From: Patescibacteria group bacterium
Lineage (GTDB): Bacteria > Patescibacteriota > Patescibacteriia > GWA2-46-9
Reading direction: 5' to 3'
Assembly (NCBI GenBank): GCA_041675205.1
Contig: JBAYUF010000005.1
Span: 6,159 to 70,158 of the forward strand
DNA length: 64,000 nt
Both the position numbers and the translations under genes were made by a program. The first letter of the stretch is position 1; the number at the start of each line of letters is the position of its first letter. This document shows, one piece after another, positions 9,805 to 63,480 of the stretch. The notes under the pieces were generated by a model that was not told where the DNA came from, searched no databases, and saw nothing but the letters and a program-made list of their open reading frames with translations.

Positions 9805-9880
9805 GGCCCACTTAGCTCAGTTGGTAGAGCATCTCCATGGTAAGGAGAAGGTCCGCAGTTCGAATCTGCGAGTGGGCTCC
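9805..9880 (+). tRNA. tRNA-Thr (anticodon GGU)
   Basis: Hand-folded cloverleaf: acceptor GGCCCAC/GTGGGCT, D-arm GCTCAGTTGGTAGAGC, anticodon stem TCTCC/GGAGA with loop ATGGTAA, T-arm GGTCCGCAGTTCGAATCTGCG. Confidence 0.8.
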
Positions 9881-11620: not shown

Positions 11621-11694
11621 GGGGGCGTAGTGAAGTGGCATCATGCGGGTCTCCAAAACCTAAGTCGTAGGTTCGATTCCTACCGCCCCTGCCA
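11621..11694 (+). tRNA. tRNA-Trp (anticodon CCA), CCA encoded
   Basis: Acceptor GGGGGCG/CGCCCCT, D-stem GTGA/TCAT, anticodon stem CGGGT/ACCTA with loop CTCCAAA, T-arm GTAGGTTCGATTCCTAC, discriminator G. Confidence 0.75.
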
Positions 11695-11695
11695 G

Positions 11696-11735
11696 AAAAA
11701 TCCGTCACCATTTGGTGTACGGATTTTTCTGTTAT
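11696..11735 (+). terminator. intrinsic terminator hairpin (AAAAATCCGT...ACGGATTTTT), A- and T-flanked
   Basis: Perfect 10-bp stem flanked by an A-run and a T-run. A second, near-identical copy lies at 14652-14690. Confidence 0.7.
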
Positions 11736-11860
11736 TGGAAGGCGGAGTCGAACCTGGGGAAGGGGTCGGGGAACGGGAGTTCCCCGTGGCGGAATTATTC
11801 AAACCGAGGGGTTTGAAAGAGTCGCGGAGCGACGATGGTTCTAGCGAAGCGGATTCTACC

Positions 11861-11882
11861 GCCCCTGCCAGTTTGAGCTAGC
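11861..11882 (+). repeat. direct repeat of the tRNA-Trp 3' end (GATTCTACCGCCCCTGCCAG), att-like
   Basis: Matches 20/21 nt of tRNA-Trp positions 11674-11695. A further partial copy (CATCTACCGCCCTTGCCA) lies at 16262-16280. Confidence 0.7.
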
Positions 11883-11996
11883 ACAAGAAGCATCGTTTCA
11901 AGAGAGTACACGTTAGGATCAATACCCAGGCGAAAGCCTGGGTATTGGCGTATTAGGGCGAAAGAATTGAATTTGCATATATGATATTATGTCCTT

Positions 11997-12755
11997 ATGC
12001 GCGATGATGAACAGCCGGTATGTCCCAACTGTGGTTGGCCACTCCACATAGGCCAGCATGGGCCCCATCCTGAAGATGCTCCGAGAGAACCAACTCATCC
12101 ATTGCCGGAGGATTTGGCTCATCGGTTTGTGAACGGCACTATTTTTAATGATGCTGAAGTAGTAGCTGAAGGAGAACATGGTGATATCTATCGAGGCTTT
12201 ATTCGGGAGGAGCCGAATATTGGTATTCAAGCGGCGAAACTTCGGATAGATTTTCAGAAATCTAGTTCTTCAAATGCTGACACTCCAAAACAGGTACGCT
12301 TTGAATACGTACAGCCGGATAAAGTTGATTCAGAAAGTGATGTATTAGTGGCAGAAATGCATATCGCTCCATGGGGTAAAAATAAATTTGTTTTACAGCA
12401 CCGTTACGTTCAACCTGAGTTTCAAGGTAAACTTGGTCTTGGGACTAAACTTTTGCAGCAGGTAGAAAGTTGGTTAGCGCAAGTGGCGAGTGAAAAGAAA
12501 GAGGATGTGATTCTCGAAGTAGATACAGGCCAGAAGGGAGTGATTTCTTGGGTCGAGAAAAATGGTTTTTCTGTTGATCCTGATCAAGTCAAAGAATTGC
12601 AGGAGGTTGTGGATCATCCTGACCGATATGCGCTCGAAGACGTTCCTGATGTTGACGGATTGACTAAACCCGAATTCATTTTTAGAAATGATACCCCGGG
12701 CAGAACCGTTATTGACGCAGTTCGTTTTACTTTTAGTAAGAAGATTTCTGGTTGA
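11997..12755 (+). CDS. GNAT-family acetyltransferase with N-terminal CxxC zinc-ribbon-like motif
   Basis: CPNCGWPLH N-terminus; GNAT motif A-like FQGKLGLGTKLLQQVE. Confidence 0.5.
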   Translation: MRDDEQPVCPNCGWPLHIGQHGPHPEDAPREPTHPLPEDLAHRFVNGTIFNDAEVVAEGEHGDIYRGFIREEPNIGIQAAKLRIDFQKSSSSNADTPKQVRFEYVQPDKVDSESDVLVAEMHIAPWGKNKFVLQHRYVQPEFQGKLGLGTKLLQQVESWLAQVASEKKEDVILEVDTGQKGVISWVEKNGFSVDPDQVKELQEVVDHPDRYALEDVPDVDGLTKPEFIFRNDTPGRTVIDAVRFTFSKKISG

Positions 12756-12765
12756 ACAGAGTCCG

Positions 12766-12856
12766 CTCGAGGTGCATTGTTTTGATCATTGAAACAAGGC
12801 CCCAAAAGCCTTACTGGTGTTGACCGATTGAGGTTCGATCTCGAGGTGGCCTGCCA
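12766..12856 (+). repeat. structured intergenic repeat, family A, copy 1 (CTCGAGGTG...GGTTCGATCTCGAGGTGGCCTGCCA)
   Basis: Aligned by eye with four other copies. Conserved ends and a central AAGGC/GCCTT hairpin; the 5' hairpin varies in sequence but keeps its structure. Confidence 0.75.
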
Positions 12857-13032
12857 AAAGAGTTCTGTCTGTGAAAGGCCTTTTTAATACAGTAATCATT
12901 GACAAGGGATGCCTTTTTCCATACAGTGCTGCTCGTCGTGGATGTAGAAGATTCGTAAGTTTCAATTCACAACTCAGGGCTTGGTCGGCTCTGACCCACA
13001 GAGAAGCCGAAGAAATTCGGCAAGGAGGAACC

Positions 13033-13626: not shown

Positions 13627-13680
13627 GGGGCGGGTTCGGTTGGTTGCAACAAGCTTCCGACCGACCCGCCCTTCGTCCTT
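13627..13680 (+). repeat. GC-rich imperfect palindrome, family B copy 1 (GGGGCGGGTTCGGTTGG-TTGCAACAAGCTT-CCGACCGACCCGCCC)
   Basis: Long imperfect inverted repeat with a conserved loop. A second copy at 24810-24866 follows the other high-GC cassette. Confidence 0.65.
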
Positions 13681-13711
13681 TTCAAACATTTTTTTATTTG
13701 AAGTTACTGAG

Positions 13712-13803
13712 CTCGAGGTGCGGCGTTTCGTTCATCTAAAATAGACCCCAAAAGCCTTACTGGTGTTGACCGATTGGGGGTTCGGTCTCGAGGCGGCCTG
13801 CCA
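13712..13803 (+). repeat. structured intergenic repeat family A, copy 2
   Basis: Same ends (CTCGAGGTGC ... CTCGAGGCGGCCTGCCA); hairpin GACCG...CGGTC fully paired in this copy. Confidence 0.75.
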
Positions 13804-13848
13804 AAAGAGTTCTGCCCGAGGAGGGCGGGACTTTTTTGTTTTTATTTT
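13804..13848 (+). terminator. intrinsic terminator (AAAAGAGTTCTGCCCG-gagga-GGGCGGGACTTTTTT)
   Basis: GC-rich stem with G-U pairs, A-run upstream and T-run downstream. Related copies at 12857-12885 and 16281-16320. Confidence 0.65.
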
Positions 13849-14486: not shown

Positions 14487-14560
14487 ATAAATATTATCAT
14501 AAATAGGAACTCGTGATCGGGCCGTGTCACTTTTGTCACTTTTCACTAAATCCGCAGGTG

Positions 14561-14651
14561 CTCGAGGTGTGTCGTTTTGATCATCGGAAAAAGGTTCCAA
14601 ACGCCTTACTGGTGTTGACCGATTCGGGTTCGGTCTCGAGGTGGCCTGCCA
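14561..14651 (+). repeat. structured intergenic repeat family A, copy 3
   Basis: CTCGAGGTGT...GGTCTCGAGGTGGCCTGCCA, followed directly by the AAAAATCCGT terminator copy. Confidence 0.75.
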
Positions 14652-14690
14652 GAAAAATCCGTCACCGTTTTGGTGGACGGATTTTTCTGT
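14652..14690 (+). terminator. intrinsic terminator, second copy of the AAAAATCCGTCACC...ACGGATTTTT hairpin
   Basis: Near-identical to 11696-11735. Confidence 0.65.
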
Positions 14691-14773
14691 TGTTGGGTGA
14701 AAGGAATCGAACTTGAGAAGGGGGTCGTAACTGCAAGAGGAGAAGAAAAATTAGATTATGATAGAATAAGGTT

Positions 14774-15844: not shown

Positions 15845-15935
15845 CTCGAGGTGCATCATTTTTGCCATCAAAATAAGGCCCCAAAAAGCCTCACTGGTGT
15901 TGATTGATTGGGGTTCGATCTCGAGGTGGCCTGCC
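15845..15935 (+). repeat. structured intergenic repeat family A, copy 4
   Basis: Begins immediately after the TAG stop at 15842-15844. Hairpin 3 carries compensatory changes (GATTG/CGATC). Confidence 0.75.
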
Positions 15936-16420
15936 GTAGAAGGAGGAGTGTCCGAATGGCTGTTCGTCTTTTCTGTTATATGAGTTGTCTAGACAGGTGT
16001 GTGTGCCTTCACTATACTACTTACTATATGGATGAATCACTTATCATACAAAAGCTGGTTTCCTTGGATGAAAAGATTAGTGGTATTGCGACTCAAGACA
16101 GCCTGATAAAACTTTCTGATGACATCACGCAGGCACTTGATGACCAGCTTGTTATTTTGCAAAGATTGGATTAAGAGAGGCTTTTCACTATGGAACGAAT
16201 AAAGAGAATTGAAGCGGATGTTGAAGAATTAAAATTACAACTGAAAGTGGCTTAAGAGCTTCGACTTCATCTACCGCCCTTGCCAAAAGAGTTCTGCCCG
16301 TCGGGGCGGGACTCTTTTTACGTGAGAGAATATTGAAAAAGAGGGTATTTTTTATTGTAGAAAGATAGTACAGCGAGAATCAGAGGTATGGTAAACTGAT
16401 TTTGCTGACTAAATGACTCT

Positions 16421-16918
16421 ATGAGAACTAGAAAAGAATTAGAGAGGTATGTTACTTCAGTCGGAAAGGATATTAAGGATTGTAGAATAGCTGTCGGTTC
16501 ACTCATTTTTGACAAGGAAAATAAAGTCATACTACTTGAACGTGGAGATAGTTCACGCGATAGTGCTGGTAAGTTTGAAGGTGTAGGCGGGGGTGTTGAC
16601 GCCGCCGAAGAAAATTTGCACGAAGCGCTACAACGAGAGATACATGAGGAAATCGGTGAAGTTCAGGTTGATATAAAAGAGTTACTCACCGTAATGATTC
16701 TACCAGGCTCGACGGGCGGTACGTGGGTTGTTCCAATTTATTTATGTAGATTAAAAAGCGGGGAGCCAATAGTTATGGAGCCTGATAAGATAGTTAAAAT
16801 ACATCATTTCAAGCTGGGGGACATACCCTACAATAAGCTGAGCGCGTATCAGAAAAGTACGATGGATGCTTATCGTGAGAAGTACGGCCAAGAAGTATTT
16901 GACGTTCTTTCGAGTTGA
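16421..16918 (+). CDS. NUDIX hydrolase
   Basis: Nudix box GGGVDAAEENLHEALQREIHEEIGE. Confidence 0.7.
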   Translation: MRTRKELERYVTSVGKDIKDCRIAVGSLIFDKENKVILLERGDSSRDSAGKFEGVGGGVDAAEENLHEALQREIHEEIGEVQVDIKELLTVMILPGSTGGTWVVPIYLCRLKSGEPIVMEPDKIVKIHHFKLGDIPYNKLSAYQKSTMDAYREKYGQEVFDVLSS

Positions 16919-16939: not shown

Positions 16940-18424
16940 TTGGACTCACTACGTAAGCGAAATATGAAGTTTGATAATTTTGAAATTTACGAAAGAATTT
17001 ATAGTAGCCATTGGTTTCTGACTTCCTACAATGGAATCGGATTTATTTTTGATTTCCCAAAAATCGGCGGTGGCAATTTTCTAAAGAAAGTCATTTATGT
17101 GATGGAAAATCAGATGTGTCGCTATATATTTAATCATAAGGAGTTTGAGCTGGCTGCCAACTATACTGCCGATAAATTAATCAATAATAACAAATGGAGA
17201 AAAGAAGTTTACGAAAAAATTGATTATTTTACAAAACAGTATTTTGATGCAGGAGAAAATTTAAGAGATTCAAATTTATCTTTGCTCTCTAACAAAGAGC
17301 TAATTAAACGCATTCGACGAATAATTGTTTTTCAGCATTACCATCAAGTCTACAGTGTTTTGGCCAATGGAGTAGTTTTAGATGGCCGCAATCATATGTC
17401 GAATAAAATTCGAGATGAATTACGAAATAATTTAAACTTCCCTCCGAAGTTTGAGAATTATTGGAGCACATTAACTCAAATTACGAGGATGAGTCTTCGG
17501 CAGAAAAAAGATTATGAAATTTCTCTTTTAGCAAAAAAGGTTGGAATACTAACTCAGAAACAAATTGAATCAAAATTAAAAAAGCTGCATAAAGAGTATT
17601 GTTGGCTCGACTATAATAATATGGGACCGGCAACGTCGTTTGATGCGTTTCGACAGCAACTTAAAATGGCAAAGCGGAGCGATAAGGACTTGAATGTACC
17701 GAAGCGTTTGGCAGTTTTGAAGAAAAAACAAAGACAATTGATGTCTACATTGAAATTTAACCGAAGGTCTAGATTTTTGATTGCATTAGCCCAACAGGTG
17801 ATTTGGCAGAAAGGGTATCGAAAGGATGTTCAGTATCATGGATTTTATTGCTATGAGCCCTTGTTGCAAGAGCTCGTAAGAAGAAAAAAAGTTTCTGATT
17901 GGCAAACATTGAGTTTCCTATTCCCTTGGGAACTTGAGGGTTATATAAAATCAAATAAACCGACCACTGCTGAATTGGAACAAAGGCGCAAGCTTTCAGT
18001 CTTTATGGTGACAAGAGCGGGACATTCAATCATGGTAGGAAAAAAAGCAAAGATGACTGTAAAAAAATTTGGATCACTTGAAAATTTTACAAGTGTAACC
18101 GAAGTAAGGGGTCAAGTTGCGTATACAGGATTAGTTCGCGGTAAGGTTAAAATCATTCAAACTCCGTCAGACATGGTCAAAATGAACAAAGGGGATGTTC
18201 TCATGTCCCAGGCAACCAGTCCTGATTTACTGCCCGCAATGAAAAAAGCTGGTGCAATTGTTACGAATACCGGTGGTTTAATTTGCCATGCTGCAATAAC
18301 TTCTCGCGAATTAAAGATTCCTTGTGTAGTTGGCACAGCAAAAGCAACCTTAGTCTTTAAAGACGGAGATTTGGTAGAGGTTGATGCAACTAGCGGAGTC
18401 GTAAAAATAGTAAAATCAGAATAG
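16940..18424 (+). CDS. PEP-utilizing-enzyme mobile-domain protein, paralog 2, with larger uncharacterized N-terminal region
   Basis: C-terminal GDVLMSQATSPDLLPAMKKAGAIVTNTGGLICHAAITSRELKIPCVVG is homologous to the C-terminus of 14774-15844. AT-rich. Confidence 0.6.
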   Translation: MDSLRKRNMKFDNFEIYERIYSSHWFLTSYNGIGFIFDFPKIGGGNFLKKVIYVMENQMCRYIFNHKEFELAANYTADKLINNNKWRKEVYEKIDYFTKQYFDAGENLRDSNLSLLSNKELIKRIRRIIVFQHYHQVYSVLANGVVLDGRNHMSNKIRDELRNNLNFPPKFENYWSTLTQITRMSLRQKKDYEISLLAKKVGILTQKQIESKLKKLHKEYCWLDYNNMGPATSFDAFRQQLKMAKRSDKDLNVPKRLAVLKKKQRQLMSTLKFNRRSRFLIALAQQVIWQKGYRKDVQYHGFYCYEPLLQELVRRKKVSDWQTLSFLFPWELEGYIKSNKPTTAELEQRRKLSVFMVTRAGHSIMVGKKAKMTVKKFGSLENFTSVTEVRGQVAYTGLVRGKVKIIQTPSDMVKMNKGDVLMSQATSPDLLPAMKKAGAIVTNTGGLICHAAITSRELKIPCVVGTAKATLVFKDGDLVEVDATSGVVKIVKSE

Positions 18425-18514
18425 CTCGAGGTGCGTCGTTTTCGTCTTCGAAACAAGGCTCCAAACGCCTTACTGGTGTTGACCGACCGGGGTTCGATCT
18501 CGAGGTGGCCCGCA
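18425..18514 (+). repeat. structured intergenic repeat family A, copy 5
   Basis: Starts right after the TAG stop. Its 3' end is degenerate (GGCCCGCA instead of GGCCTGCCA). A terminator hairpin CTGCC-ttaaac-GGCAG-TTTTTT follows at 18523-18551. Confidence 0.7.
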
Positions 18515-18598
18515 GCAACAAATCTGCCTTAAACGGCAGGTTTTTTATTACTCAAAACGACAGGCATCGTGAAGTTAGAACTGTGATAGAATGTATGT

Positions 18599-18934
18599 AT
18601 GACCTTTTTACAAAAAACTATATTTGTTCTGATTATCCTGCTTATCCCCATAGCCTTTTTGCTAGGAGGTTTTCTTGGCAATTTGAAATATGCAGCACCT
18701 TTGGCACACTGTAATCCTGCCTCCGTGCCATATGAAAACGCTGAAACCCAAGAAGTATCTCTACCGATGAGTACTATGTTCAGAAACTATTATGGACATA
18801 CGTATAATTTTAGTGGTCATATTGTGCCTAAAGGGGTCAGTCTAAAAGATTATTATTCAACATTTAACTCTGGTGGTTTTCATTATCTTAAAACTACCAA
18901 TGGAGAGGTAGTCGCTTGTGGATTTTATAAGTAG
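18599..18934 (+). CDS. small membrane-anchored hypothetical protein
   Basis: Hydrophobic N-terminus. ATG lies 7 nt after an extended -10 element (TGATAGAAT, 18584-18592), implying a leaderless transcript. Confidence 0.45.
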   Translation: MTFLQKTIFVLIILLIPIAFLLGGFLGNLKYAAPLAHCNPASVPYENAETQEVSLPMSTMFRNYYGHTYNFSGHIVPKGVSLKDYYSTFNSGGFHYLKTTNGEVVACGFYK

Positions 18935-19015
18935 CGAGCGGGGACTAATCGCAAATCAGGAACATAAATAAACTCACACTGCCGCTGAATAATGGTTTTG
19001 ACGTCCTCCACGATG

Positions 19016-19099
19016 CCCTGCCATCAGAAACGACCCGTAAACTCGGGTCGTTTCTGGTAGAGGGGAGTGGGACATAGAACTGTGATAGAATATTTAAGT
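19016..19099 (+). promoter_or_regulatory. terminator-promoter junction module (CCCTGCCA / 13-bp hairpin / extended -10 TGATAGAAT)
   Basis: Perfect hairpin CAGAAACGACCCG-taaact-CGGGTCGTTTCTG, then GGACATAGAACTGTGATAGAAT. ATG of the next gene is 9 nt after the -10. Confidence 0.6.
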
Positions 19100-20278
19100 A
19101 TGCAAAAAATTACTACAAGCGAGTACGCGGATTTGACACAGCACGAACTAGAGGCGCTGAAACATGAGTTTAACCTTGCGGATGCACATACTCATCAATC
19201 GCAATCGCTCACCCAGCGGAAGATTATAAGTCGACTACCAAGCCTCTGGTACCAATCGGAAAGAGCCACACAGGTCGAAATGGAGAATAAATTTATTCGT
19301 TCTTTTTTTCAGTATCATCAACAGCCTACGGCATTGAAAACACCTTCATTGTTAGTCTATGCAGCCTCCATTGGGATGGTAATTGTCTCTAACTATTTCA
19401 AGAAAAAACAACTGTCCGTTCAGCTGATAACCCCTTGTTTTGATAATCTTCCTGACCTACTAAGAAATCTTGGAGTACCAATTAAGCCGTTGCGAGAAGA
19501 GTTATTAGAGGACGCTAGTGCTATTTATCAGAATCTAGAGCGACATTGTAAAAGTGACGTTATTTTTCTTGTCTCTCCCAATAATCCGACGGGGTTTGAA
19601 CTTACAGGTAACGTAGGCACTGACTATAAGGCACGATTTAAGGAACTGATTCGCTTTGCCAAGAATCATAATAAAATCCTTGCGTTCGACTTTTGTTTTG
19701 CTTCGTTTATAGTGCAGGATGCAAAAGTACCTACGTTTGATGTCTACAGCCTGCTAGAAAAATCGGGTGTGAGCTATATTGCCATTGAGGACTCTGGGAA
19801 AACGTGGCCGCTGCAAGATGCCAAGGTGGCACTTATTAAAGCGAGCAAGAATCTTTATCCTGAGCTCCACAATATTCATACGGCGTATTTGCTCAACGTT
19901 TCACCATTTATTTTGAATCTTGTAAGCGAGTATTGTGAAGATTCGATAAAAGACAAGGGTTCTAGTATCAAGAACCTGCTTGAACGAAATCGCAAGATTG
20001 TTAAAAAGGAATTAAGCGGAGACCTGCTTGAGTTTATGGAACCTGGCACACTTGTTAGTGTCGCGTGGTTCAAGATTAGAAATTCGAAGATTATGGCAAC
20101 GACCTTGCAGAAGCATCTCTATCGCAAGGCAAGGGTGTACGTATTGCCAGGAACATACTTTTTTTGGGATAAGCCGACCAGGGGAGAAAGGTATATACGA
20201 ATTGCCTTAGCGCGTGACACGATTATGTTCAAAAAAGCAATCGCAAAAGTTAAGAAGGCTCTCTATGCATACAGGTAA
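19100..20278 (+). CDS. PLP-dependent aminotransferase (class I/II fold)
   Basis: SPNNPTG motif and a candidate PLP-lysine in EDSGKTW. Start moved to the ATG at 19100 because the track start at 19067 lies inside the promoter element. Confidence 0.6.
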   Translation: MQKITTSEYADLTQHELEALKHEFNLADAHTHQSQSLTQRKIISRLPSLWYQSERATQVEMENKFIRSFFQYHQQPTALKTPSLLVYAASIGMVIVSNYFKKKQLSVQLITPCFDNLPDLLRNLGVPIKPLREELLEDASAIYQNLERHCKSDVIFLVSPNNPTGFELTGNVGTDYKARFKELIRFAKNHNKILAFDFCFASFIVQDAKVPTFDVYSLLEKSGVSYIAIEDSGKTWPLQDAKVALIKASKNLYPELHNIHTAYLLNVSPFILNLVSEYCEDSIKDKGSSIKNLLERNRKIVKKELSGDLLEFMEPGTLVSVAWFKIRNSKIMATTLQKHLYRKARVYVLPGTYFFWDKPTRGERYIRIALARDTIMFKKAIAKVKKALYAYR

Positions 20279-21023
20279 AGAACTCGCGATTCCTTTAGTA
20301 TCCCCTATGCTTGACGGGGCGATAGATAAAGAGTCCATCAGACGCCTTGTGTCATTCTGCGAACCGTATGTGGATATATATGTTCCATGTCTTTCTTCGG
20401 GTGAAGGTGAGAAACTTAGTTCGAGTCAGTGGTCAGAAGTGGTTAGTGCAGTGAGAAGCGAAACAGACAAACCCGTCTATTGTGGGATTTTGAAAGAGGG
20501 AAAAGAAGAGGTACAACAGTATTTGGTTTTGGCGGCCAAGTATGGGTGTGAGGGCGTTGTTATTAAGGTGGAGATGCTTCATCCAAACAATGGTTTGGAT
20601 TTTTCTGGCCTGAAGCTCATTCTTTATAATCAAGAGGGGTCTAAAGCAACGGCGGCTGAATTACTACAACTATCAAGGCATCCTCAAGTAGTCGCAATTA
20701 AAGACAGTTCTGAGAATGTAAGTTTATTCAACGAGCTCTCGGAGTCTTTAGCTCGGGAGGGGAGTGCGGTGAAATTATATCAAGGAATGGAAACCACGAT
20801 TCTTCAAACGCCTGACGCCGATGGGATGCTCATTTCATTGGCTAATGTAGAGCCGAGCTTTTGTAGAAAACTGCTATCGGAGCAAGGTGGAAAGGCTGCA
20901 CAAGAGCTCGATGGCTACATTGAGCGCTATAATCTAAAAGACGGTCAGTGGTATAAGTCCTTAAAAGAAGCCCTGTATAGTATGAAAGTCATTAACTCTC
21001 CGCAACTTGTTGGCCAGGAGTAA
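20264..21023 (+). CDS. DapA/N-acetylneuraminate-lyase family class I aldolase-like protein
   Basis: AIPLVSPMLDG, SSGEGEKLS and VAIKDSS (Schiff-base Lys context). Overlaps the aminotransferase stop, suggesting an operon. Confidence 0.5.
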
Positions 21024-21024
21024 T

Positions 21025-21510
21025 ATGAAAAATATTTACGTAGATTCAGGCGTATTTTTGGCGATGCATAGCATTGATGAAAAAATCCGTGTTACGTGCA
21101 AGAACTTTTTTGTTGCCAATTTTTCAAAGCAGTTGTTCATGTTGCTGGAAGATGTTGGGCAGTGTGATGCCGTGATTTGGAAGGAAGAAAGAGAATTGCA
21201 GGATGCTTATTATCCATTCATGGACAACTTGCATACGTTGATGAAAATCGAGCGAGTTCCTTATAATAAGGGCGCCTTAGAGAATATTGATGAGCTACGG
21301 ATAATTGATAGTAGTTTCTCTATCAGCGACCTTCTGACCTTGTCTCATGTTAAAGCGAGTGGTGCAGTACTGTATACACTTGGGGTATCTCGTTTGAAAA
21401 TTGATAGCATATGTAAAGCCTTGCCTGAACAGGAGGCGAGTGAACTTAGTTTCGAGCAGCAGCTTGAGCGACTATATCAAGAGTCTTTAAAACTAAGAGT
21501 GGGTCAGTAG
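21025..21510 (+). CDS. hypothetical protein
   Basis: ORF continuing the operon with no recognizable motifs. Start ambiguous (21007 or 21025). Confidence 0.4.
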   Translation: MKNIYVDSGVFLAMHSIDEKIRVTCKNFFVANFSKQLFMLLEDVGQCDAVIWKEERELQDAYYPFMDNLHTLMKIERVPYNKGALENIDELRIIDSSFSISDLLTLSHVKASGAVLYTLGVSRLKIDSICKALPEQEASELSFEQQLERLYQESLKLRVGQ

Positions 21511-21613
21511 CTCCGTGTATACATATCAGGACGGTAACTAGATAAAGCAAAGTTCTGCAGTTGAAGTTCTAGTTTGATAGCTACCCAATTCTAGGTTCAA
21601 ACTTGTGTACTAG

Positions 21614-21692
21614 CCCTGCCATCAGAAATGACCTATAAACTCGGGTCGTTTTTGATAGAGCGAAACAGGACATGGAACTGTGATAATATAAC
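21614..21692 (+). promoter_or_regulatory. terminator-promoter junction module, copy 2 (degenerate hairpin; extended -10 TGATAATAT)
   Basis: GCCCTGCCATCAGAAATGACC...GGACATGGAACTGTGATAATAT. ATG at 21696 is about 7 nt after the -10. Confidence 0.55.
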
Positions 21693-22373
21693 TTGATGAA
21701 AGACAAAGTCATTGTTATTACGGGTGGAAGCAAAGGCCTCGGCAAGGGTCTCGCTAATATTTTGGCAAATAACAGTAATAGAGTAGTCATTTGCGCTCGA
21801 CATGAAGTTGAATTAGATAAGACTGCGAAAGAGATTGGCGCAATCCCTTTTCTTGCGGATGTGGCAAAAGAAGAGGATGTAGAATTGCTTGCCGCCTATG
21901 CTGTAAAAGAATTTGGATGCATTGATTTATGGATAAACAATGCCGGCATTTGGTTGCCCCATGCATCGATTGAAGACACCGATCTAAAAAAAGTGCAAGA
22001 GATGTTTTTGGTTAATGTGTTTGGTACGATGAATGGCTCAAAGATTGCGCTTACGCAAATGAGGAAACAGGGTCATGGAACGGTCGTTAACATTATTTCA
22101 ACAAGCGGATTAATTGCTCGGCCTCAGTCGTCAGGATATGCGGCAAGTAAGTGGGCAGTTCGTGGATTTACTGATTCAATTCGTGAAGAAGTTAAGGGCA
22201 CGGATATCCATGTTCTGAGTGTGTACCCCGGGGGCATGCAAACAGATCTATTTGGCGAACAGAAACCGGAAGAGATGAATAAGTATATGACGTTCGAATC
22301 AGTGGCAGAGAAAATTATTGAAAATTTAGATGCCCTGGAACCATTGACGGAACTAATCATCAAGCGCACGTAA
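21693..22373 (+). CDS. SDR-family short-chain dehydrogenase/reductase
   Basis: TGGSKGLGKG cofactor motif, NNAG, and catalytic YAASK. Confidence 0.75.
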   Translation: MMKDKVIVITGGSKGLGKGLANILANNSNRVVICARHEVELDKTAKEIGAIPFLADVAKEEDVELLAAYAVKEFGCIDLWINNAGIWLPHASIEDTDLKKVQEMFLVNVFGTMNGSKIALTQMRKQGHGTVVNIISTSGLIARPQSSGYAASKWAVRGFTDSIREEVKGTDIHVLSVYPGGMQTDLFGEQKPEEMNKYMTFESVAEKIIENLDALEPLTELIIKRT

Positions 22374-22396
22374 GTTCTGTTCGTTTTTGATAGAAG

Positions 22397-23347
22397 GTGA
22401 CGATGATTCTAGTCCCGCTGTGCGGGACGGATTCAACTATTTCCGAGCCGCTCCTTGTTACGATACGAGACATAGTTGAGTACCTCAAAATCCTATTTAT
22501 GCGATACGATTACAAAATTAGCCGCGCTGTTTCATTCGCCATTGAAACGCACGAAATTAACCAAAAACAAAAGCGGAAGGGAAAAGATATTGCCTACATC
22601 ACGCATCCTCTCACTGTTGGGCTTATATTGTCGCGCTGCGGTGCTAGTGACGAGGTCGTAGTGGCGGGCATACTGCATGATACTGTTGAGGATAGCGTTG
22701 ACGATCACAAAGTAACTATCGCGATGCTTCAAGAACGTTTTGGTAAGAAAGTTGCTGAACTCGTTACTAGTGTCACCGAAACAAACCGAGCGCTGCCATG
22801 GAGTGAGCGCAAGCGTGAAGCACTCGAACATGTTGCATCATTTTCACATGAGGCGTTGCTGGTGAAATCCGCCGATGTCATTAGTAATGCAACCGAAATC
22901 ATAGATGACCACAAGCATGATGGCGACTCAGTGTTTGCTCGTTTTAATGCGCCAAAGATTGATGTTCTTCAGAACTACTTATGGGTAATTACGGCCATTA
23001 TTAAATGTTGGCCAGACAGCCCACTTGCAGAAGACTTGCGTTCCGTTGCTAATGGACTACAGGATATGGCTGCGCTTCATTTCATGCAGAACCATCGAGC
23101 TATTGTTATTGAGTATCGGGATTACAGTGAAGACATGCCTATTCAGTGCCCGGTGTGTGATTGGAGTGGTACGCCCAAGGAAAGTGGACTCCTCAATACT
23201 GACAGCCAGGCAGCGCTTGATGTCTCCTGCCGTAATTGCGACAAGATTCTGCTCGTCGTAGAGTATGCCTCTGGCAATGAGGTGGGTAACGAAAGTGAGA
23301 TTGCATTTATTCCCAAGATGAAAAAGAAAATGGACGAAAGTAGCTAG
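22397..23347 (+). CDS. HD-domain phosphohydrolase (RelA/SpoT-type ppGpp-hydrolase-like) with C-terminal CxxC...CxxC zinc ribbon
   Basis: AVSFAIETHE...GKDIAYITHPLTVGLIL...GILHDTVED (HD motif); CPVCDW...CRNCDK at the C-terminus. True start may be the Met at 22499. Confidence 0.55.
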   Translation: MTMILVPLCGTDSTISEPLLVTIRDIVEYLKILFMRYDYKISRAVSFAIETHEINQKQKRKGKDIAYITHPLTVGLILSRCGASDEVVVAGILHDTVEDSVDDHKVTIAMLQERFGKKVAELVTSVTETNRALPWSERKREALEHVASFSHEALLVKSADVISNATEIIDDHKHDGDSVFARFNAPKIDVLQNYLWVITAIIKCWPDSPLAEDLRSVANGLQDMAALHFMQNHRAIVIEYRDYSEDMPIQCPVCDWSGTPKESGLLNTDSQAALDVSCRNCDKILLVVEYASGNEVGNESEIAFIPKMKKKMDESS

Positions 23348-23611
23348 GCATTGCTTCGAAGCACTTTCTTTTTAAGCTAGAGTGATCCTGGATCAAGCAC
23401 CGCAAGCGTTTTCAAGTCTGGTACATAAAATCCGTTTGACTGCCGTATACTGGTTCTAACGTCCTCTATGATGCCCGCCAGTTTGAGCTAGCACGAGAAG
23501 CATCGTTTCAAGATAGTTAGAAATCAACACCCAGGTGAAAGCCTGGGTGTTGATGTTTGATAGGTAAACCAGAAAAGTTTGGAACTGTGATAAAATTACA
23601 TAATGCAAGAT

Positions 23612-24101
23612 GTTAACTTTTCAGTTGATGGAAAAAAGCTCACAGGTAACACTTTTTTCCAGAAACACTTCAGTTAAAAAATCCAGCCGCTTTGATTATT
23701 CATGGATGGGAGAGTAAACAGGACAGAGGTTTTTTATTAGCGGAGGCGCTCGCTGAACAACGTGACTAAAAAGTTTTATCACAAATTGCCAGGAGGGGGA
23801 GTTGAGGAAGGTGAAGACATTGAGACTGGATTGCGTCGAGAATCGTTTGAGGAGATTGGTTGTACAATTGAGTATATTCATGAGCTAGGAACTATTGAAG
23901 AATATCGAAATGAATGCAGAAACGGGGGAGGTCGGCATCAAATCTCACATTGCTTCATCGCCGAAATTGCTGGAGATACTTGAAGTTGCTATCGAGAAAT
24001 TAGAAAGCGAGGCAAGTGTTGAAGATTATGAGGGCAAATTTATAAGATTAAGAGATCTTTTGTTTCTTAAAGAAGCAAGTTCGTGGATGCAGATCAATTG
24101 A
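23612..24101 (+). pseudogene. NUDIX hydrolase pseudogene (at least two frameshifts)
   Basis: The Nudix box LPGGGVEEGEDIETGLRRESFEEIG lies in one frame while the N-terminal and C-terminal segments continue in other frames (23612-23677, 23762-23983, 23895-24101). Confidence 0.55.
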
Positions 24102-24259
24102 AGCCCCTTCTTGATAGCTGTTGTTCTGCTGTGAGGTGGTTTTTAATAATAAAGTAATCATTGACAAAGAAAGTTTTTTTCAATAAGGTGTTGCTCGTCG
24201 TGGATGCGGAACGATTTTTAAAAACGAAGAAAGATTCAAATATTCGGTACGGAGGAATC

Positions 24260-24778
24260 ATGAACGAGGTGAAAACATTGGCACAGGTCTTGGCAAGGAT
24301 GACCTCAGAATTCATGCAAAGCGAAGCATTCAGGTTTCTCGCGAACCGGAGGCAGTATACGAATGAAGTGGTGCGTCGCGTCGATACATCCATCCCTGAG
24401 CTGAGGGTATTCGTTCAGGCAGTTATCTGTGTCTTCGGTAACAGAGGTGCTAGTGGGCTCACATTTGCCCTGGGTATCATCTTCCACTTGGTGGACCAGG
24501 ATACACCAAGTCGGGTGTGGCTTGAAAAGCACTTGCTGTTGCTTGATGACGAGATTGTCGAGAGGGCCGTCGACACGTTGCAGGAGGAGCCCCGCTGTCT
24601 CGTTGCTGCGGGTGAGCGTTCATCCGCAGGTGCTTATGAGGTTGCGGGCACTATAGAAGGCATGGGTACTTTCGAGGGTGAAGATGCAGCCAGGGGCGCA
24701 TTTGCAATCTTCGGATTACTGCAACAACTCGACAATGCACCCGCTGATGACGATCCTGGCTCTGCGTACTTGATTTAA
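24260..24778 (+). CDS. hypothetical protein in the second high-GC cassette
   Basis: About 60% GC. Strong SD (ACGGAGGAATCATG). Upstream promoter and leader are homologous to those of the 13033 cassette. Confidence 0.5.
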   Translation: MNEVKTLAQVLARMTSEFMQSEAFRFLANRRQYTNEVVRRVDTSIPELRVFVQAVICVFGNRGASGLTFALGIIFHLVDQDTPSRVWLEKHLLLLDDEIVERAVDTLQEEPRCLVAAGERSSAGAYEVAGTIEGMGTFEGEDAARGAFAIFGLLQQLDNAPADDDPGSAYLI

Positions 24779-24809
24779 TCACCACGGGTAACACTCAGTG
24801 GTGCTGACA

Positions 24810-24866
24810 GGGGGGCGGTCTGATTGGTTGCAACAAGCTTCCAAACGGCCCGCCCCTCGTCCTGTC
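24810..24866 (+). repeat. GC-rich imperfect palindrome, family B copy 2
   Basis: GGGGGCGGTCTGATTGG-TTGCAACAAGCTT-CCAAACGGCCCGCCCC, with the same loop as 13627-13680. Confidence 0.65.
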
Positions 24867-24908
24867 CAAATATTTAATTTTCATTTGAAACCATAGTTCT
24901 CAAGGTGG

Positions 24909-24991
24909 CCTGCCATCAGACATGACCCGTGAACTCGGGTCTTTTTTGGTAGAGAGGAGTAGCACATGGAACTGTGATAGTATTCGTACGT
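24909..24991 (+). promoter_or_regulatory. terminator-promoter junction module, copy 3 (extended -10 TGATAGTAT)
   Basis: GGCCTGCCATCAGACATGACCCGTGAACTCGGGTC...CACATGGAACTGTGATAGTAT. ATG at 24992 lies 8 nt after the -10. Confidence 0.55.
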
Positions 24992-25615
24992 ATGGAACTA
25001 TTTCTAACATCGAGCGTTCACGCTGTGGCGCAAGACATTGCCAAGAAGATTAACCTTGTTAAGGCAAACAAGCTAGTGTTTATCACTACTGCCGCTGAGC
25101 CGAAAGAGGAAGGGGATTTAACCTGGCTTTATAACGATAGACAGGCGTTGGTCGATGCTGGCTTTAATGTCGTTGATTATACAATTACTAATAAGAACAA
25201 AAGCGAGCTAGAGCGTGACCTTGAGGGTTTCGACTACATCTATCTCTCAGGAGGGAATACCGCTTATCTTTTACAACAATCTCAAAAATCAGGATTTGTT
25301 GCTTTGGTAAAAGAACTCGTTCAGAAGAAAGGTAAAGTCTACATCGGGACTAGTGCAGGCTCAGTCATTGCCGGGCCGAGACTCTCTGATTACTACATTG
25401 ACGAATCAACAGAGTTGGAAGACAAAAAAGGATATGGGTTTGTAAATTTTACAATTGTTCCGCATTGGGGTTCTGGTGATTTTAGAAAAACGTACTTAGG
25501 CGAGAGATTGAAGATTGTGTATAAAGAAGATCAAGTGCCCCTACTTCTTCTTACTGATAATCAATACGTTCACATAAAAGATGAGCAGATGAAGATCATT
25601 GATGTGAAAGAGTAA
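24992..25615 (+). CDS. S51-family peptidase (dipeptidase E/cyanophycinase-like)
   Basis: LSGGNTAYLL and GTSAGSVIAGP motifs. Confidence 0.6.
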   Translation: MELFLTSSVHAVAQDIAKKINLVKANKLVFITTAAEPKEEGDLTWLYNDRQALVDAGFNVVDYTITNKNKSELERDLEGFDYIYLSGGNTAYLLQQSQKSGFVALVKELVQKKGKVYIGTSAGSVIAGPRLSDYYIDESTELEDKKGYGFVNFTIVPHWGSGDFRKTYLGERLKIVYKEDQVPLLLLTDNQYVHIKDEQMKIIDVKE

Positions 25616-26128: not shown

Positions 26129-26334
26129 GTATACGCTTGGTGGACCGGTGACTGTGTGGATAAGTGGTGTCGAGCCGGCCGGAGAGTGAACGTCGGGATC
26201 TTGGCGGTTCCAGCCGTCGACGGGGCGGATTGGCTTCGTTCAGCAATTCTTCCGACTGACCTGCTCCTCGTCCTTCTCTGACCTCCAAAATAGTTCTCGC
26301 TAGGATGAAATTTTAATTATGTTAGAATAAAATC

Positions 26335-45644: not shown

Positions 45645-46412
45645 ATGATTAGACAAGAAAAAATACCAACGGACAATGGTGGATATATTGCTGCGGCTAT
45701 ACATCACCCACCACAGACGACAGATTGCTTAGCCATTCTTTGCCCTGGCTGGTTAGATTCAAAAGAGTATAATCATTTGGTATTTTTGGCCGACGATTTA
45801 GCAAACGAGGGTTACACGGTTGTTCGTTTTGATCCAACAGGCACTTGGGAAAGTGAAGGCGATACACCACATACCGTTTCTGAATACCTCAATGATATAA
45901 GATCTGTTTTGGAATATATGCTTGAAACGGGCAGTTTCAAGCACGTGCTTCTCGGTGGGCATAGCCGTGGGGGAATGGTTTCTATTCTTTACGCTATTCG
46001 TGATTCTAGAATCTCTACTGTCCTGGCCATAATGACCCCCTACAGTATTGTCAGAACACAAACAAAAGACACCATTGAAGCATGGAAAAGTAAGGGTTAC
46101 CGCATTTCTTTACGAAACGTACCAAATAGTAAAGAAATAAAAGAATTTCGCGTGCCGTATTCACACGCCGAAGATGCAGAGATGTATAATGTTCTAGAAG
46201 AGGTTAAAAATCTTCACACGCCATTGCTTCTTGTGACAGGGGATGTAGACACAGTTGTGTCACCCGATGATGTTAAGCAGATTTATGACAAAGCCAATGA
46301 GCCAAAGCAGTTCTTGACCCTGGAAGGCATTGGGCACGATTATCGTCATAATGATGATGAAATTAAAATCGTGAATGAAGCTGTATTGAAAGCTTTAGAA
46401 TCTTTCGAGTAA
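45645..46412 (+). CDS. alpha/beta-fold hydrolase
   Basis: Nucleophile elbow GGHSRGG; downstream Asp and His (GIGHD) candidates. Confidence 0.65.
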   Translation: MIRQEKIPTDNGGYIAAAIHHPPQTTDCLAILCPGWLDSKEYNHLVFLADDLANEGYTVVRFDPTGTWESEGDTPHTVSEYLNDIRSVLEYMLETGSFKHVLLGGHSRGGMVSILYAIRDSRISTVLAIMTPYSIVRTQTKDTIEAWKSKGYRISLRNVPNSKEIKEFRVPYSHAEDAEMYNVLEEVKNLHTPLLLVTGDVDTVVSPDDVKQIYDKANEPKQFLTLEGIGHDYRHNDDEIKIVNEAVLKALESFE

Positions 46413-54994: not shown

Positions 54995-55240
54995 GACGTT
55001 GGGCTGGTCCCGCTGCTGCGGGACTACTAGCTGTTGAAACATTCTGACTACATCAGAATGATCATTATCGTTGCGGGACCATATTCCCGGGGTTCGTCGG
55101 CCATGGGCATCGCCGAACCCTTCGAGTCCCGACGCACAACAAACTGTTGTTGTCCTCCAGCCCTCAGTCACGATGTTCTCCCGCCCTGTGGCGGGACTAC
55201 TGACTTTCAAAACATTATGACAACGTCATAATGCACGTTA
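54995..55240. repeat. tandem duplicated hairpin module sharing GTCCCGCC with the adjacent tRNA-Pro T-arm
   Basis: Two units of about 95 nt: TCCCGCTGCTGCGGGACTACT...CATTCTGACTACATCAGAATG and TCCCGCCCTGTGGCGGGACTACT...CATTATGACAACGTCATAATG. The hairpin arms carry compensatory substitutions. Confidence 0.55.
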
Positions 55241-55244
55241 GTGT

Positions 55245-55321
55245 GGTCGGGCTGGCGGGACTCGAACCCGCGACCTCGTCGTCCCGAACGACGCGCGCTA
55301 GCCAACTGCGCTACAGCCCGA
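55245..55321 (-). tRNA. tRNA-Pro (anticodon CGG), CCA encoded
   Basis: Reverse complement folds as CGGGCTG acceptor, GCGCAGTTGGCTAGCGC D-arm, anticodon loop TTCGGGA, T-arm GCGGGTTCGAGTCCCGC. Confidence 0.8.
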
Positions 55322-63289: not shown

Positions 63290-63480
63290 TGGAAATAACG
63301 TGCCGTATGCAGGTACGACTTACGCTATACGTTATACGGGAGATAGAGGCTATACGGCATACGCCGTAGGTTATACGCCTTACGCTATAGGCTGTACGGA
63401 AAGTCACCGTTGGCCGTAAACTACTTGGCGTACTGCGTACTGCGTATGGCGTATAACGTACTTTTCCGCTATACTTTTTA
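63290..63480. repeat. TACG-rich degenerate short tandem/palindromic repeat tract
   Basis: Reiterated TACGCTATACG, TATACGG and GCGTACTGCGTACTGCGTATGGCGTATAACGTAC units upstream of the ECF sigma gene. Confidence 0.6.

Follow-up and report, generated by a model that had tools for sequence, protein, structure and literature searches.

Integron arrays are rows of small cassettes that point in one direction, are bounded by hairpin-forming repeats, are captured at a fixed site and are served by a common promoter (Pc). In Firmicutes, cis-mobilizable elements (CIMEs) derived from integrative and conjugative elements (ICEs) lack an integrase, are flanked by att sites and accrete in tandem through a recombinase acting in trans. 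The leaderless genes of Actinobacteria and Deinococcus-Thermus are driven by promoters that consist of a -10 box only, and extended -10 promoters function without a -35 hexamer, with transcription starting about 7 nt downstream. The tycheposons of Prochlorococcus stack at one tRNA gene with nothing but partial tRNA copies between them, and remnants are left behind (10.1101/2020.12.28.424599). The locus described here lies in a 64,000-nt stretch of a Patescibacteria genome (the window), part of a 71.5-kb metagenome contig (ENA ERZ27247358) whose proteins are listed at NCBI under 'Patescibacteria group bacterium'. At 18570-24991, a sequence-only reading had noted five repeated elements, three full terminator-promoter copies and two with the promoter only, with an extended -10 box directly upstream of the start codons of putative cassette genes. 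We consider it probable that these elements are the promoter-proximal parts of junctions between gene cassettes that were stacked by site-specific recombination behind the gene for tRNA-Trp.

The 15-mer GAACTGTGATAnnAT matched the window exactly at five positions (18578, 19077, 21675, 23582 and 24969), all on the + strand. With up to two mismatches allowed there were seven matches, a number reached in none of 100 shuffles. Three longer copies of about 97 nt were recovered by a repeat finder as family D2 (19009-19105, 21607-21703 and 24901-24997; 70-81% identical), and alignments of these full copies (~84 nt) placed the limits of the likeness at GCC(C)TGCCA on the left and at the ATG on the right. 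The five exact 15-mers and the three full copies running up to the ATG confirm that the terminator-promoter modules are real. Their description as free-standing portable units was not borne out, as each opens with bases copied from the 3′ end of tRNA-Trp and forms the right arm of a junction in a tRNA-anchored array of 12.

The anchor of this array is an intact tRNA-Trp (CCA) gene at 11621..11694 on the + strand, identified by ARAGORN and by the Rfam tRNA model (59.1 bits). The gene ends in ...CTACCGCCCCTGCCA, the last 7 nt of which (CCTGCCA) comprise the acceptor end, the discriminator and the CCA. It is followed by a terminator hairpin at about 11693-11731 (-24.7 kcal/mol) and preceded by a gene for an LRV-repeat protein. 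The window contains 18 copies of CCTGCCA, where 6.6 would be expected. On the + strand between 11688 and 24915 there are eight exact copies, none of them inside a called gene, and four further junctions carry core variants of one or two bases, for a total of 12 cores, all on the + strand and outside called genes. The core of the first junction, J0, is the end of tRNA-Trp itself (core end 11694). Two other junctions are true duplications of the tRNA end: J1 (11852..11996; GATTCTACCGCCCCTGCCA, core end 11870), which reproduces 19/20 nt of the tRNA-Trp 3′ end, and J5b (16268..16320; CTACCGCCCTTGCCA, core end 16285), which reproduces 14/15 nt. As in additive genomic islands, an intact tRNA gene thus stands at one end and direct repeats of the tRNA 3′ end bound the segments.

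Between the true tRNA-Trp and J1 lies a unit of 176 nt without a gene (11695-11870). This unit and the right arm of J4 (14652-14720) have a terminator in common, followed by an inverted sequence resembling a tRNA 3′ end; in reverse complement, TGGAAGGCGGAGTCGAACC and TGGGTGAAAGGAATCGAAC read ...GGTTCGACTCCGCCTTCCA and ...GTTCGATTCCTTTCACCCA. A second tRNA-linked repeat pair was observed at 55013-55067 and 55186-55240, in the minus-strand context of tRNA-Pro (55244-55320). Here a 55-nt sequence just downstream of the tRNA recurs 173 nt further on at 75% identity, and in front of the second copy stands part of a tRNA-Pro-like 3′ end (GGGTTCG...GGTCCCGCAACGA). The pair may be a one-unit version of the phenomenon seen at tRNA-Trp.

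The sequences on the two sides of the core are mosaic. The left arm is either a ~92-nt element resembling the 3′ half of a tRNA, termed D1, or a shorter arm of the GGTTCTAAC... type. D1 is found at J2-J6 and in part at J10, copies of the tRNA end at J0, J1 and J5b, and GGTTYTRACGTCCTCYAYGATGC at J7 and J9. Among the right arms, RA, which holds the hairpin and promoter of the full copies, is shared by J7, J8 and J10 (82-85% identical), RB by J1 and J9 (88% identical), RC by J2, J3 and J5b, and RD by J0 and J4. The left- and right-arm families assort independently of one another with the breakpoint at the core, and this switch at a tRNA-end sequence points to site-specific recombination.

The five D1 copies lie at 12765-12856 (J2, with the core CCTGCCA ending at 12856), 13711-13803 (J3, core end 13803, then a hairpin at 13802-13838), 14560-14651 (J4, core end 14651, with a right arm that is the terminator sequence behind the true tRNA-Trp), 15845-15936 (J5, with the degenerate core CCTGCCG ending at 15936 and a decayed hairpin) and 18424-18514 (J6, which extends to 18598, with the degenerate core GCCCGCA ending at 18514 and a hairpin at 18520-18543). 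The copies are placed just after genes, three of the five within 10 nt of the stop codon. D1 contains a T-loop-like GGTTCGATC, a closing helix CTCGAG...CTCGAG and the CCTGCCA end, as well as an AAGGC/GCCTT hairpin whose loop, (C)TCCAAA(C), resembles the anticodon loop of tRNA-Trp, and a GACCGA/TCGGTC hairpin with a compensatory change; the element as a whole shows a few such changes. At a relaxed threshold ARAGORN made weak tRNA calls on two copies (one at 14569-14651), each call stopping exactly at the core. The Rfam tRNA model did not match D1 even at E<=5, and a Rfam scan of the window returned only the true tRNAs, whether at the gathering threshold or at E<=5. We therefore claim for D1 no more than a likeness to the 3′ half of a tRNA; a structured RNA and a binding arm for a recombinase are possible identities.

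The core of J5b is followed by an RC-type hairpin. J7 (18996..19099), the first full copy, has the left arm TTTTGACGTCCTCCACGATGC, the core CCTGCCA at 19017-19023 and an RA hairpin at 19023-19058. J8 (21613..21695) has the same core at 21615-21621 and an RA hairpin at 21617-21662. J9 (23454..23605) has the left arm TTCTAACGTCCTCTATGATG, the core CCCGCCA ending at 23480 and an RB hairpin at about 23523-23556, while the RB hairpin of J1 lies at about 11918-11953. The left flank of J10 (24908..24991) is like the 3′ end of D1 (TCTCAAGGTGG); its core at 24909-24915 is followed by an RA hairpin with a GC stem at 24924-24941 and then TTTTTT. The two promoter-only copies belong to J6 and J9, whose right arms differ from RA and have just the final ~25 nt in common with it. 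The 3′ half of the RA hairpin occurs a fourth time, as a partial copy with a TTTTTGATAGA tail, at 22371-22394, between the stop codon of the SDR gene and the HD-domain gene of the J8 cassette, where it overlaps the Shine-Dalgarno (SD)-like GAAGGTG of the latter. Near the end of the window, three overlapping imperfect repeats of ~26 nt (TACGNCTTACGCTATAGGYTRTACGG) occupy 63314-63399.

Folding analyses detected a stable hairpin at or near the core in 10 of the 12 junctions (z-scores -2.5 to -7), the hairpin of J2, like that of J5, being decayed. In seven junctions it begins within the core, as does the terminator of the tRNA itself. The J7 hairpin is a perfect 15-bp stem (-33.1 kcal/mol) and those of J8 (-20.0 kcal/mol, with G-U pairs) and J10 (-18.8 kcal/mol) are weaker, in agreement with the earlier observation that one copy is perfect and the others decayed. 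The G-U pairs of J8 would fit a function at the RNA level on the + strand.

The 12 junctions span 13 kb and delimit cassettes of 0.2-3.3 kb with one to three genes each. The cargo comprises a GNAT protein, an M15 peptidase, PEP-utiliser proteins, NUDIX proteins, an aminotransferase-DHDPS-DUF6190 operon (J7; 19100-21510), an SDR with an HD-domain protein (J8; 21696-23347) and a peptidase S51. The G+C content of the cargo genes ranges from 36 to 62%, compared with 48-54% for housekeeping genes at 0.4-9.8 kb, and this heterogeneity points to foreign origins. The cassette behind J9 has decayed, since its well-preserved promoter precedes an open reading frame (ORF) of only 24 codons followed by frame-shifted gene fragments (23603-24101), among them a 73-aa NUDIX fragment at 23762-23983. 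When ten proteins of the window, the alpha/beta hydrolase at 45645 and the NUDIX protein at 16421 among them, were compared with 23590-24150 by tblastn, no match was obtained. Two further ORF regions share flanks: a 5′ flank with a promoter-like TTGACA-17-TAnnnT (12885-12949 and 24147-24211, 82% identical) and a 3′ GC-rich hairpin (13627-13691 and 24811-24875, 82% identical, with a third copy at 26222-26286). No protein similarity was detectable between the two (BLASTP E=0.04), and the pair is a second example of conserved flanks around swapped cargo.

Arrays of similar design were found in two other Patescibacteria lineages. The closest homologues of the J7 aminotransferase (60-65% identical) belong to such genomes and stand in the same three-gene operon in five genomic contexts. 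In one contig (GCA_964581035.1, 5829-11080) the operon directly follows tRNA-His and lies between copies of a 112-nt repeat that is present four times (5872, 8444, 10002 and 10968), the first copy overlapping the 3′ end of tRNA-His. This repeat is made up of a tRNA-end-like GACCCCA, a hairpin and ~40 further nt, and the ATG of the operon follows TGGTATGAT by 7 nt. In a second array, represented by contigs L025 (3799-14140) and L113, which has five junctions and follows tRNA-His, the operon makes up one unit; the aminotransferase of L025 (P0020) is named at NCBI from a Kerfeldbacteria metagenome-assembled genome (MAG). Its junctions consist of AGTTCTAACATCGTCCAGACACCGACCCA, an A-tract and a hairpin of varying sequence. 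In both arrays a left arm resembling a T-arm is followed by a core equal to the end of tRNA-His and by a hairpin, and the left arm TTCTAACNTCCTCTA is nearly identical between J9 of the window and one L025 junction. That the core matches the resident tRNA in each genome argues against a generic terminator motif or a miniature inverted-repeat transposable element (MITE). The operon is not always part of an array, because two further contigs (L026 and L027) carry it without flanking repeats. Unrelated cargo, heterogeneous G+C content and the recurrence of one three-gene operon in the arrays of other lineages bear out the proposal that these genes behave as cassettes.

Taken as a stacked array, the locus would have grown by successive addition of small cassettes at the 3′ end of tRNA-Trp with a recombinase supplied in trans, each insertion leaving one core repeat. 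The left arm of a junction would be the tail of the upstream cassette; the right arm would be the head of the downstream one, bringing the hairpin, the promoter and the first gene. The hairpin would stop transcripts arriving from the tRNA or from the previous cassette, and the promoter would start a leaderless or near-leaderless mRNA for the new one.

Several results weigh against this explanation. Most cores match the tRNA over only 7-9 nt. Neither searches of the window proteins with Pfam, NCBIfam and PHROGs nor the precomputed contig annotation (record 623-41773) revealed a tyrosine or serine recombinase. A scan for the module pattern gave no match in a genome collection and 13 in a metagenome collection, all of them unrelated gut-bacterium TTGACA promoters or chance matches, and three scans of a viral collection (for the module, for D1 and for the arm motif shared across lineages) gave none. 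No strain-level presence/absence polymorphism was seen, contigs from three samples being colinear at 99.6-100%, and ten contigs of the L025-type array were likewise colinear, with no ongoing cassette turnover visible. Close relatives for a synteny comparison are lacking, because the next-best homologue of the triose-phosphate isomerase (TIM) is only 43% identical, and its contig stops before the tRNA cluster. Among the RA hairpins, only the one at 24924-24941 with its TTTTTT passed a terminator scan, the T-runs of J7 (GTTTCTG) and J8 (GTTTTTG) being weak and failing it. Each module has a strong hairpin on the + strand, but the standing of two of the three full copies as putative terminators is weak. 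Finally, paralogy within the cargo (two SDRs 68% identical, two PEP-utiliser proteins 43% identical and with 80% DNA identity next to D1, and two NUDIX proteins) indicates that local duplication has contributed.

The host appears to be an uncultured Uhrbacteria-like member of the Patescibacteria, ribosomal protein S3 of the contig being 77% identical to that of a Candidatus Uhrbacteria MAG; the window opens within the ribosomal spc operon, followed by secY, adk and map. Among contigs from other samples, one ends at window position 9842, where the assembly breaks at the tRNA cluster, and another (SRR6484325; 1,038 bp, window 11792-12829) holds exactly one cassette, that of the GNAT gene. The breaks of other-sample assemblies, inside junction repeats or at the tRNA cluster, are probably repeat-induced.

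The same paralogues, lying in and beside the region, would be expected if the locus had arisen by local segmental duplication and gene conversion, the regulatory regions being copied together with paralogous genes and the match to CCTGCCA being incidental. The failure to find a recombinase or strain polymorphism would also suit such an origin, which we nevertheless regard as unlikely. The three RA copies precede unrelated genes (for an aminotransferase, an SDR and a peptidase S51), the arm families recombine exactly at the core, J1 and J5b are copies of 15-20 nt of the tRNA end, the G+C content points to foreign sources, and the array cores of other lineages match their own tRNA-His.

The promoters of the five elements bear on a further alternative. 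The -10 boxes all read TGnTAnnAT (TGATAGAAT, TGATAGAAT, TGATAATAT, TGATAAAAT and TGATAGTAT), and in each the TG stands one base upstream of the TAnnnT hexamer, as in sigma-70-type extended -10 (TGn) promoters. The promoter-only copy of J6 (GAACTGTGATAGAAT, 18578-18592) ends 6 nt before ATG 18599, which opens a 111-aa ORF. The promoters of J7 (TGTGATAGAAT, 19081-19091) and J8 (TGTGATAATAT, 21679-21689) are separated by 8 and 6 nt from ATGs 19100 and 21696, respectively, and the promoter-only copy of J9 (GAACTGTGATAAAAT, 23582-23596) is followed after 6 nt by ATG 23603. That of J10 (TGTGATAGTAT, 24973-24983) lies 8 nt before ATG 24992 of the peptidase S51 gene. Outside this set, J1 carries TGATATTAT (11982-11990) 6 nt before the ATG of the GNAT gene. 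The short distance between -10 box and ATG was therefore as the sequence-only reading had proposed, except that the fourth start had been placed at 23612 instead of at 23603, where the ATG opens only the 24-codon ORF. No -35 box at the five sites reached the criteria of the promoter scanner, again as proposed, and no SD-like word was found upstream of the five ATGs. The five starts thus have the sequence features of leaderless genes, with a -10 box ending 5-9 nt before the ATG and no SD sequence. Independent gene calls use the same ATGs. The start at 19100, the one among the five checked by homology, agrees with five homologues of the aminotransferase, which begin 3-8 residues before the conserved EYxDLTQHE block.

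This promoter type is not confined to the array. When TGnTAnnnT was counted throughout the window upstream of every first-ATG ORF of 80 aa or more, spacings of 6, 7 and 8 nt gave 8, 1 and 4 sites (13 in all), compared with 8 sites in total over 27 background spacings (0-5 and 10-30 nt; ~0.3 per spacing). Nine of the 13 sites precede genes other than those of the five elements: adk (1827), tpiA (8138), the GNAT gene (11997), a PEP-utiliser protein (14774), the second SDR (26335), an ABC transporter (30825), a GH3 glycosidase (38495, minus strand), DoxX (47189) and a C39-like peptidase (50435). An extended -10 box 6-8 nt before the ATG is therefore the general operon promoter type of this genome, and the claim that it is specific to cassettes fails on the same nine genes. 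To the question whether the motif is simply the general promoter, the answer is divided: the extended -10 itself is general, and only the longer 15-mer is local to the array.

With independent gene calls, a -10 box was present 4-10 nt before the start in 12 of 29 first genes (with TG in nine) compared with only 3 of 21 operon-internal genes. SD-like words preceded 4 of the 21 operon-internal genes and 6 of the 29 first genes; the cassette-internal genes at 20265, 21025 and 22403 do have such words. Many genes of the window lack both an SD sequence and a neighbouring -10 box. The lineage seems to initiate translation largely without SD sequences. From the position of the boxes we infer the transcription start sites and leaderless translation of the five first genes; a literature search returned no paper linking leaderless genes with Patescibacteria.

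These data also bear on whether the elements might be free-standing, portable terminator-promoter units, specific to cassette genes and spread without tRNA-based integration. Three units that are 70-85% identical and extend exactly from core to ATG before unrelated genes are what such units would look like, and the promoter segment alone is also found at two junctions with different hairpins. We nevertheless hold this improbable, given that promoter type and spacing are general in the genome, that every unit starts with a tRNA-Trp end on one strand within 13 kb downstream of the tRNA, and that neither the rest of the 64-kb window nor the scanned public collections yielded a further copy.

The conservation of the 15-mer could alternatively reflect selection for a shared operator and promoter, by which one regulator would control the five transcription units whatever the route by which the cassettes arrived. 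GAAC and TGTG upstream of the -10 box are invariant in the five copies, behind three different hairpin types, and this conservation exceeds what polymerase should need, judged by the other leaderless promoters of the window. On reading, however, the sequence has no palindrome or direct-repeat symmetry, and no regulator gene is encoded nearby. In Gram-positive bacteria a TRTG upstream of the -10 box is a polymerase contact, which leaves only GAAC unexplained. A LexA/Cheo-box reading of GAAC-N4 was rejected because a GTTC partner is missing. A shared operator is compatible with cassette stacking at the tRNA, the two not being mutually exclusive; as an explanation of the elements in its own right we give it little chance.

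A MITE, a repetitive extragenic palindromic (REP)-like or tRNA-derived SINE-like element, or an integron attC site would account for a short, repeated, hairpin-bearing intergenic element among mostly co-oriented cassettes, and there is partial complementarity between the core and a TGGTAG that follows the RA hairpin, but such an origin is barely credible for copies that all lie on the + strand of one 13-kb stretch beside one tRNA, that lack terminal inverted repeats and target duplications (the sole inverted repeat being the internal hairpin), that come with no detectable transposase or IntI, that on reading lack the R''/R' consensus (RYYYAAC/GTTRRRY), and whose cassettes carry their own promoters. 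Neither intI nor attI was found next to the array, where the upstream neighbour of the tRNA is the LRV-repeat protein gene, and in the three RA copies, read directly, the only GTT occurs in GTTTCTG and GTTTTTG (TTTTTTG at J10), unlike GTTRRRY.

Stacking of cassettes behind tRNA-Trp remains our preferred explanation, and a wider one may be built on it. It is possible, although doubtful, that Patescibacteria possess an integron-like capture of genes on tRNA 3′ ends (tRNA-Trp and tRNA-His), with conserved arms and a trans-acting recombinase, and with cargo and an arm motif circulating between Uhrbacteria-, Kerfeldbacteria- and Parcubacteria-like lineages. The left arm of a unit in such a system would be a conserved pseudo-tRNA (D1 or GTTCTAAC.TC.TCC...), and the right arm would combine a hairpin with a start-codon-adjacent promoter. 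If the arms do mark a dedicated recombinase system, they provide a signature by which arrays, and the enzyme, can be searched for across the radiation. How genes are gained and expressed in the ultra-small, host-dependent Patescibacteria is poorly understood, and the locus presents itself as a compact, ordered stockpile behind a tRNA gene. Each unit appears to bring its own stop signal and a minimal promoter, which would let the gene work immediately in a genome that hardly uses SD sequences. The extended -10 box at 6-8 nt before the ATG can also serve as a working rule when starts are called or expression constructs designed for this lineage.

Compared with the systems described so far, the promoters are closest to those of leaderless genes in Actinobacteria and Deinococcus-Thermus, where the -10 box likewise ends about 6-8 nt before the ATG, no SD sequence is present and only first genes are concerned; here the box is TG/TRTG-extended and the lineage is Patescibacteria. 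With integrons the locus shares the layout, a one-directional row of cassettes bounded by hairpin-forming repeats at one fixed site, but IntI, attI and the attC consensus are absent, a tRNA end serves as anchor, and each cassette supplies its own promoter. Accretion at ICE att sites, as in CIMEs, likewise yields integrase-less, att-flanked segments in tandem at one site; CIMEs, however, are much larger, and neither an ICE nor a recombinase is linked to this array. Tycheposons resemble it in that successive integrations push older elements inward and leave integrase-less remnants and cargo modules (10.1101/2020.12.28.424599), but their defining features are a tyrosine or serine recombinase of their own and genes for replication, none of which was found in this array, whose units hold one to three genes and whose core is only the last 7-20 nt of the tRNA. 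The additive flexible genomic islands at tRNA genes of Alteromonas and other bacteria (PMC4898812) share the integration hotspot at the tRNA 3′ end, the variable small cassettes of foreign origin and the partial tRNA direct repeats downstream of the cassettes. The present array differs from these islands in being very compact, in showing neither a nearby integrase nor strain variation, in its Patescibacteria host, and in its conserved tRNA-like left arms and its right arms with a built-in hairpin and a leaderless-type promoter. The locus is best described as a compact, integrase-less, tRNA-anchored additive genomic island in which the cassette heads join a hairpin to the standard leaderless-type promoter of the lineage.

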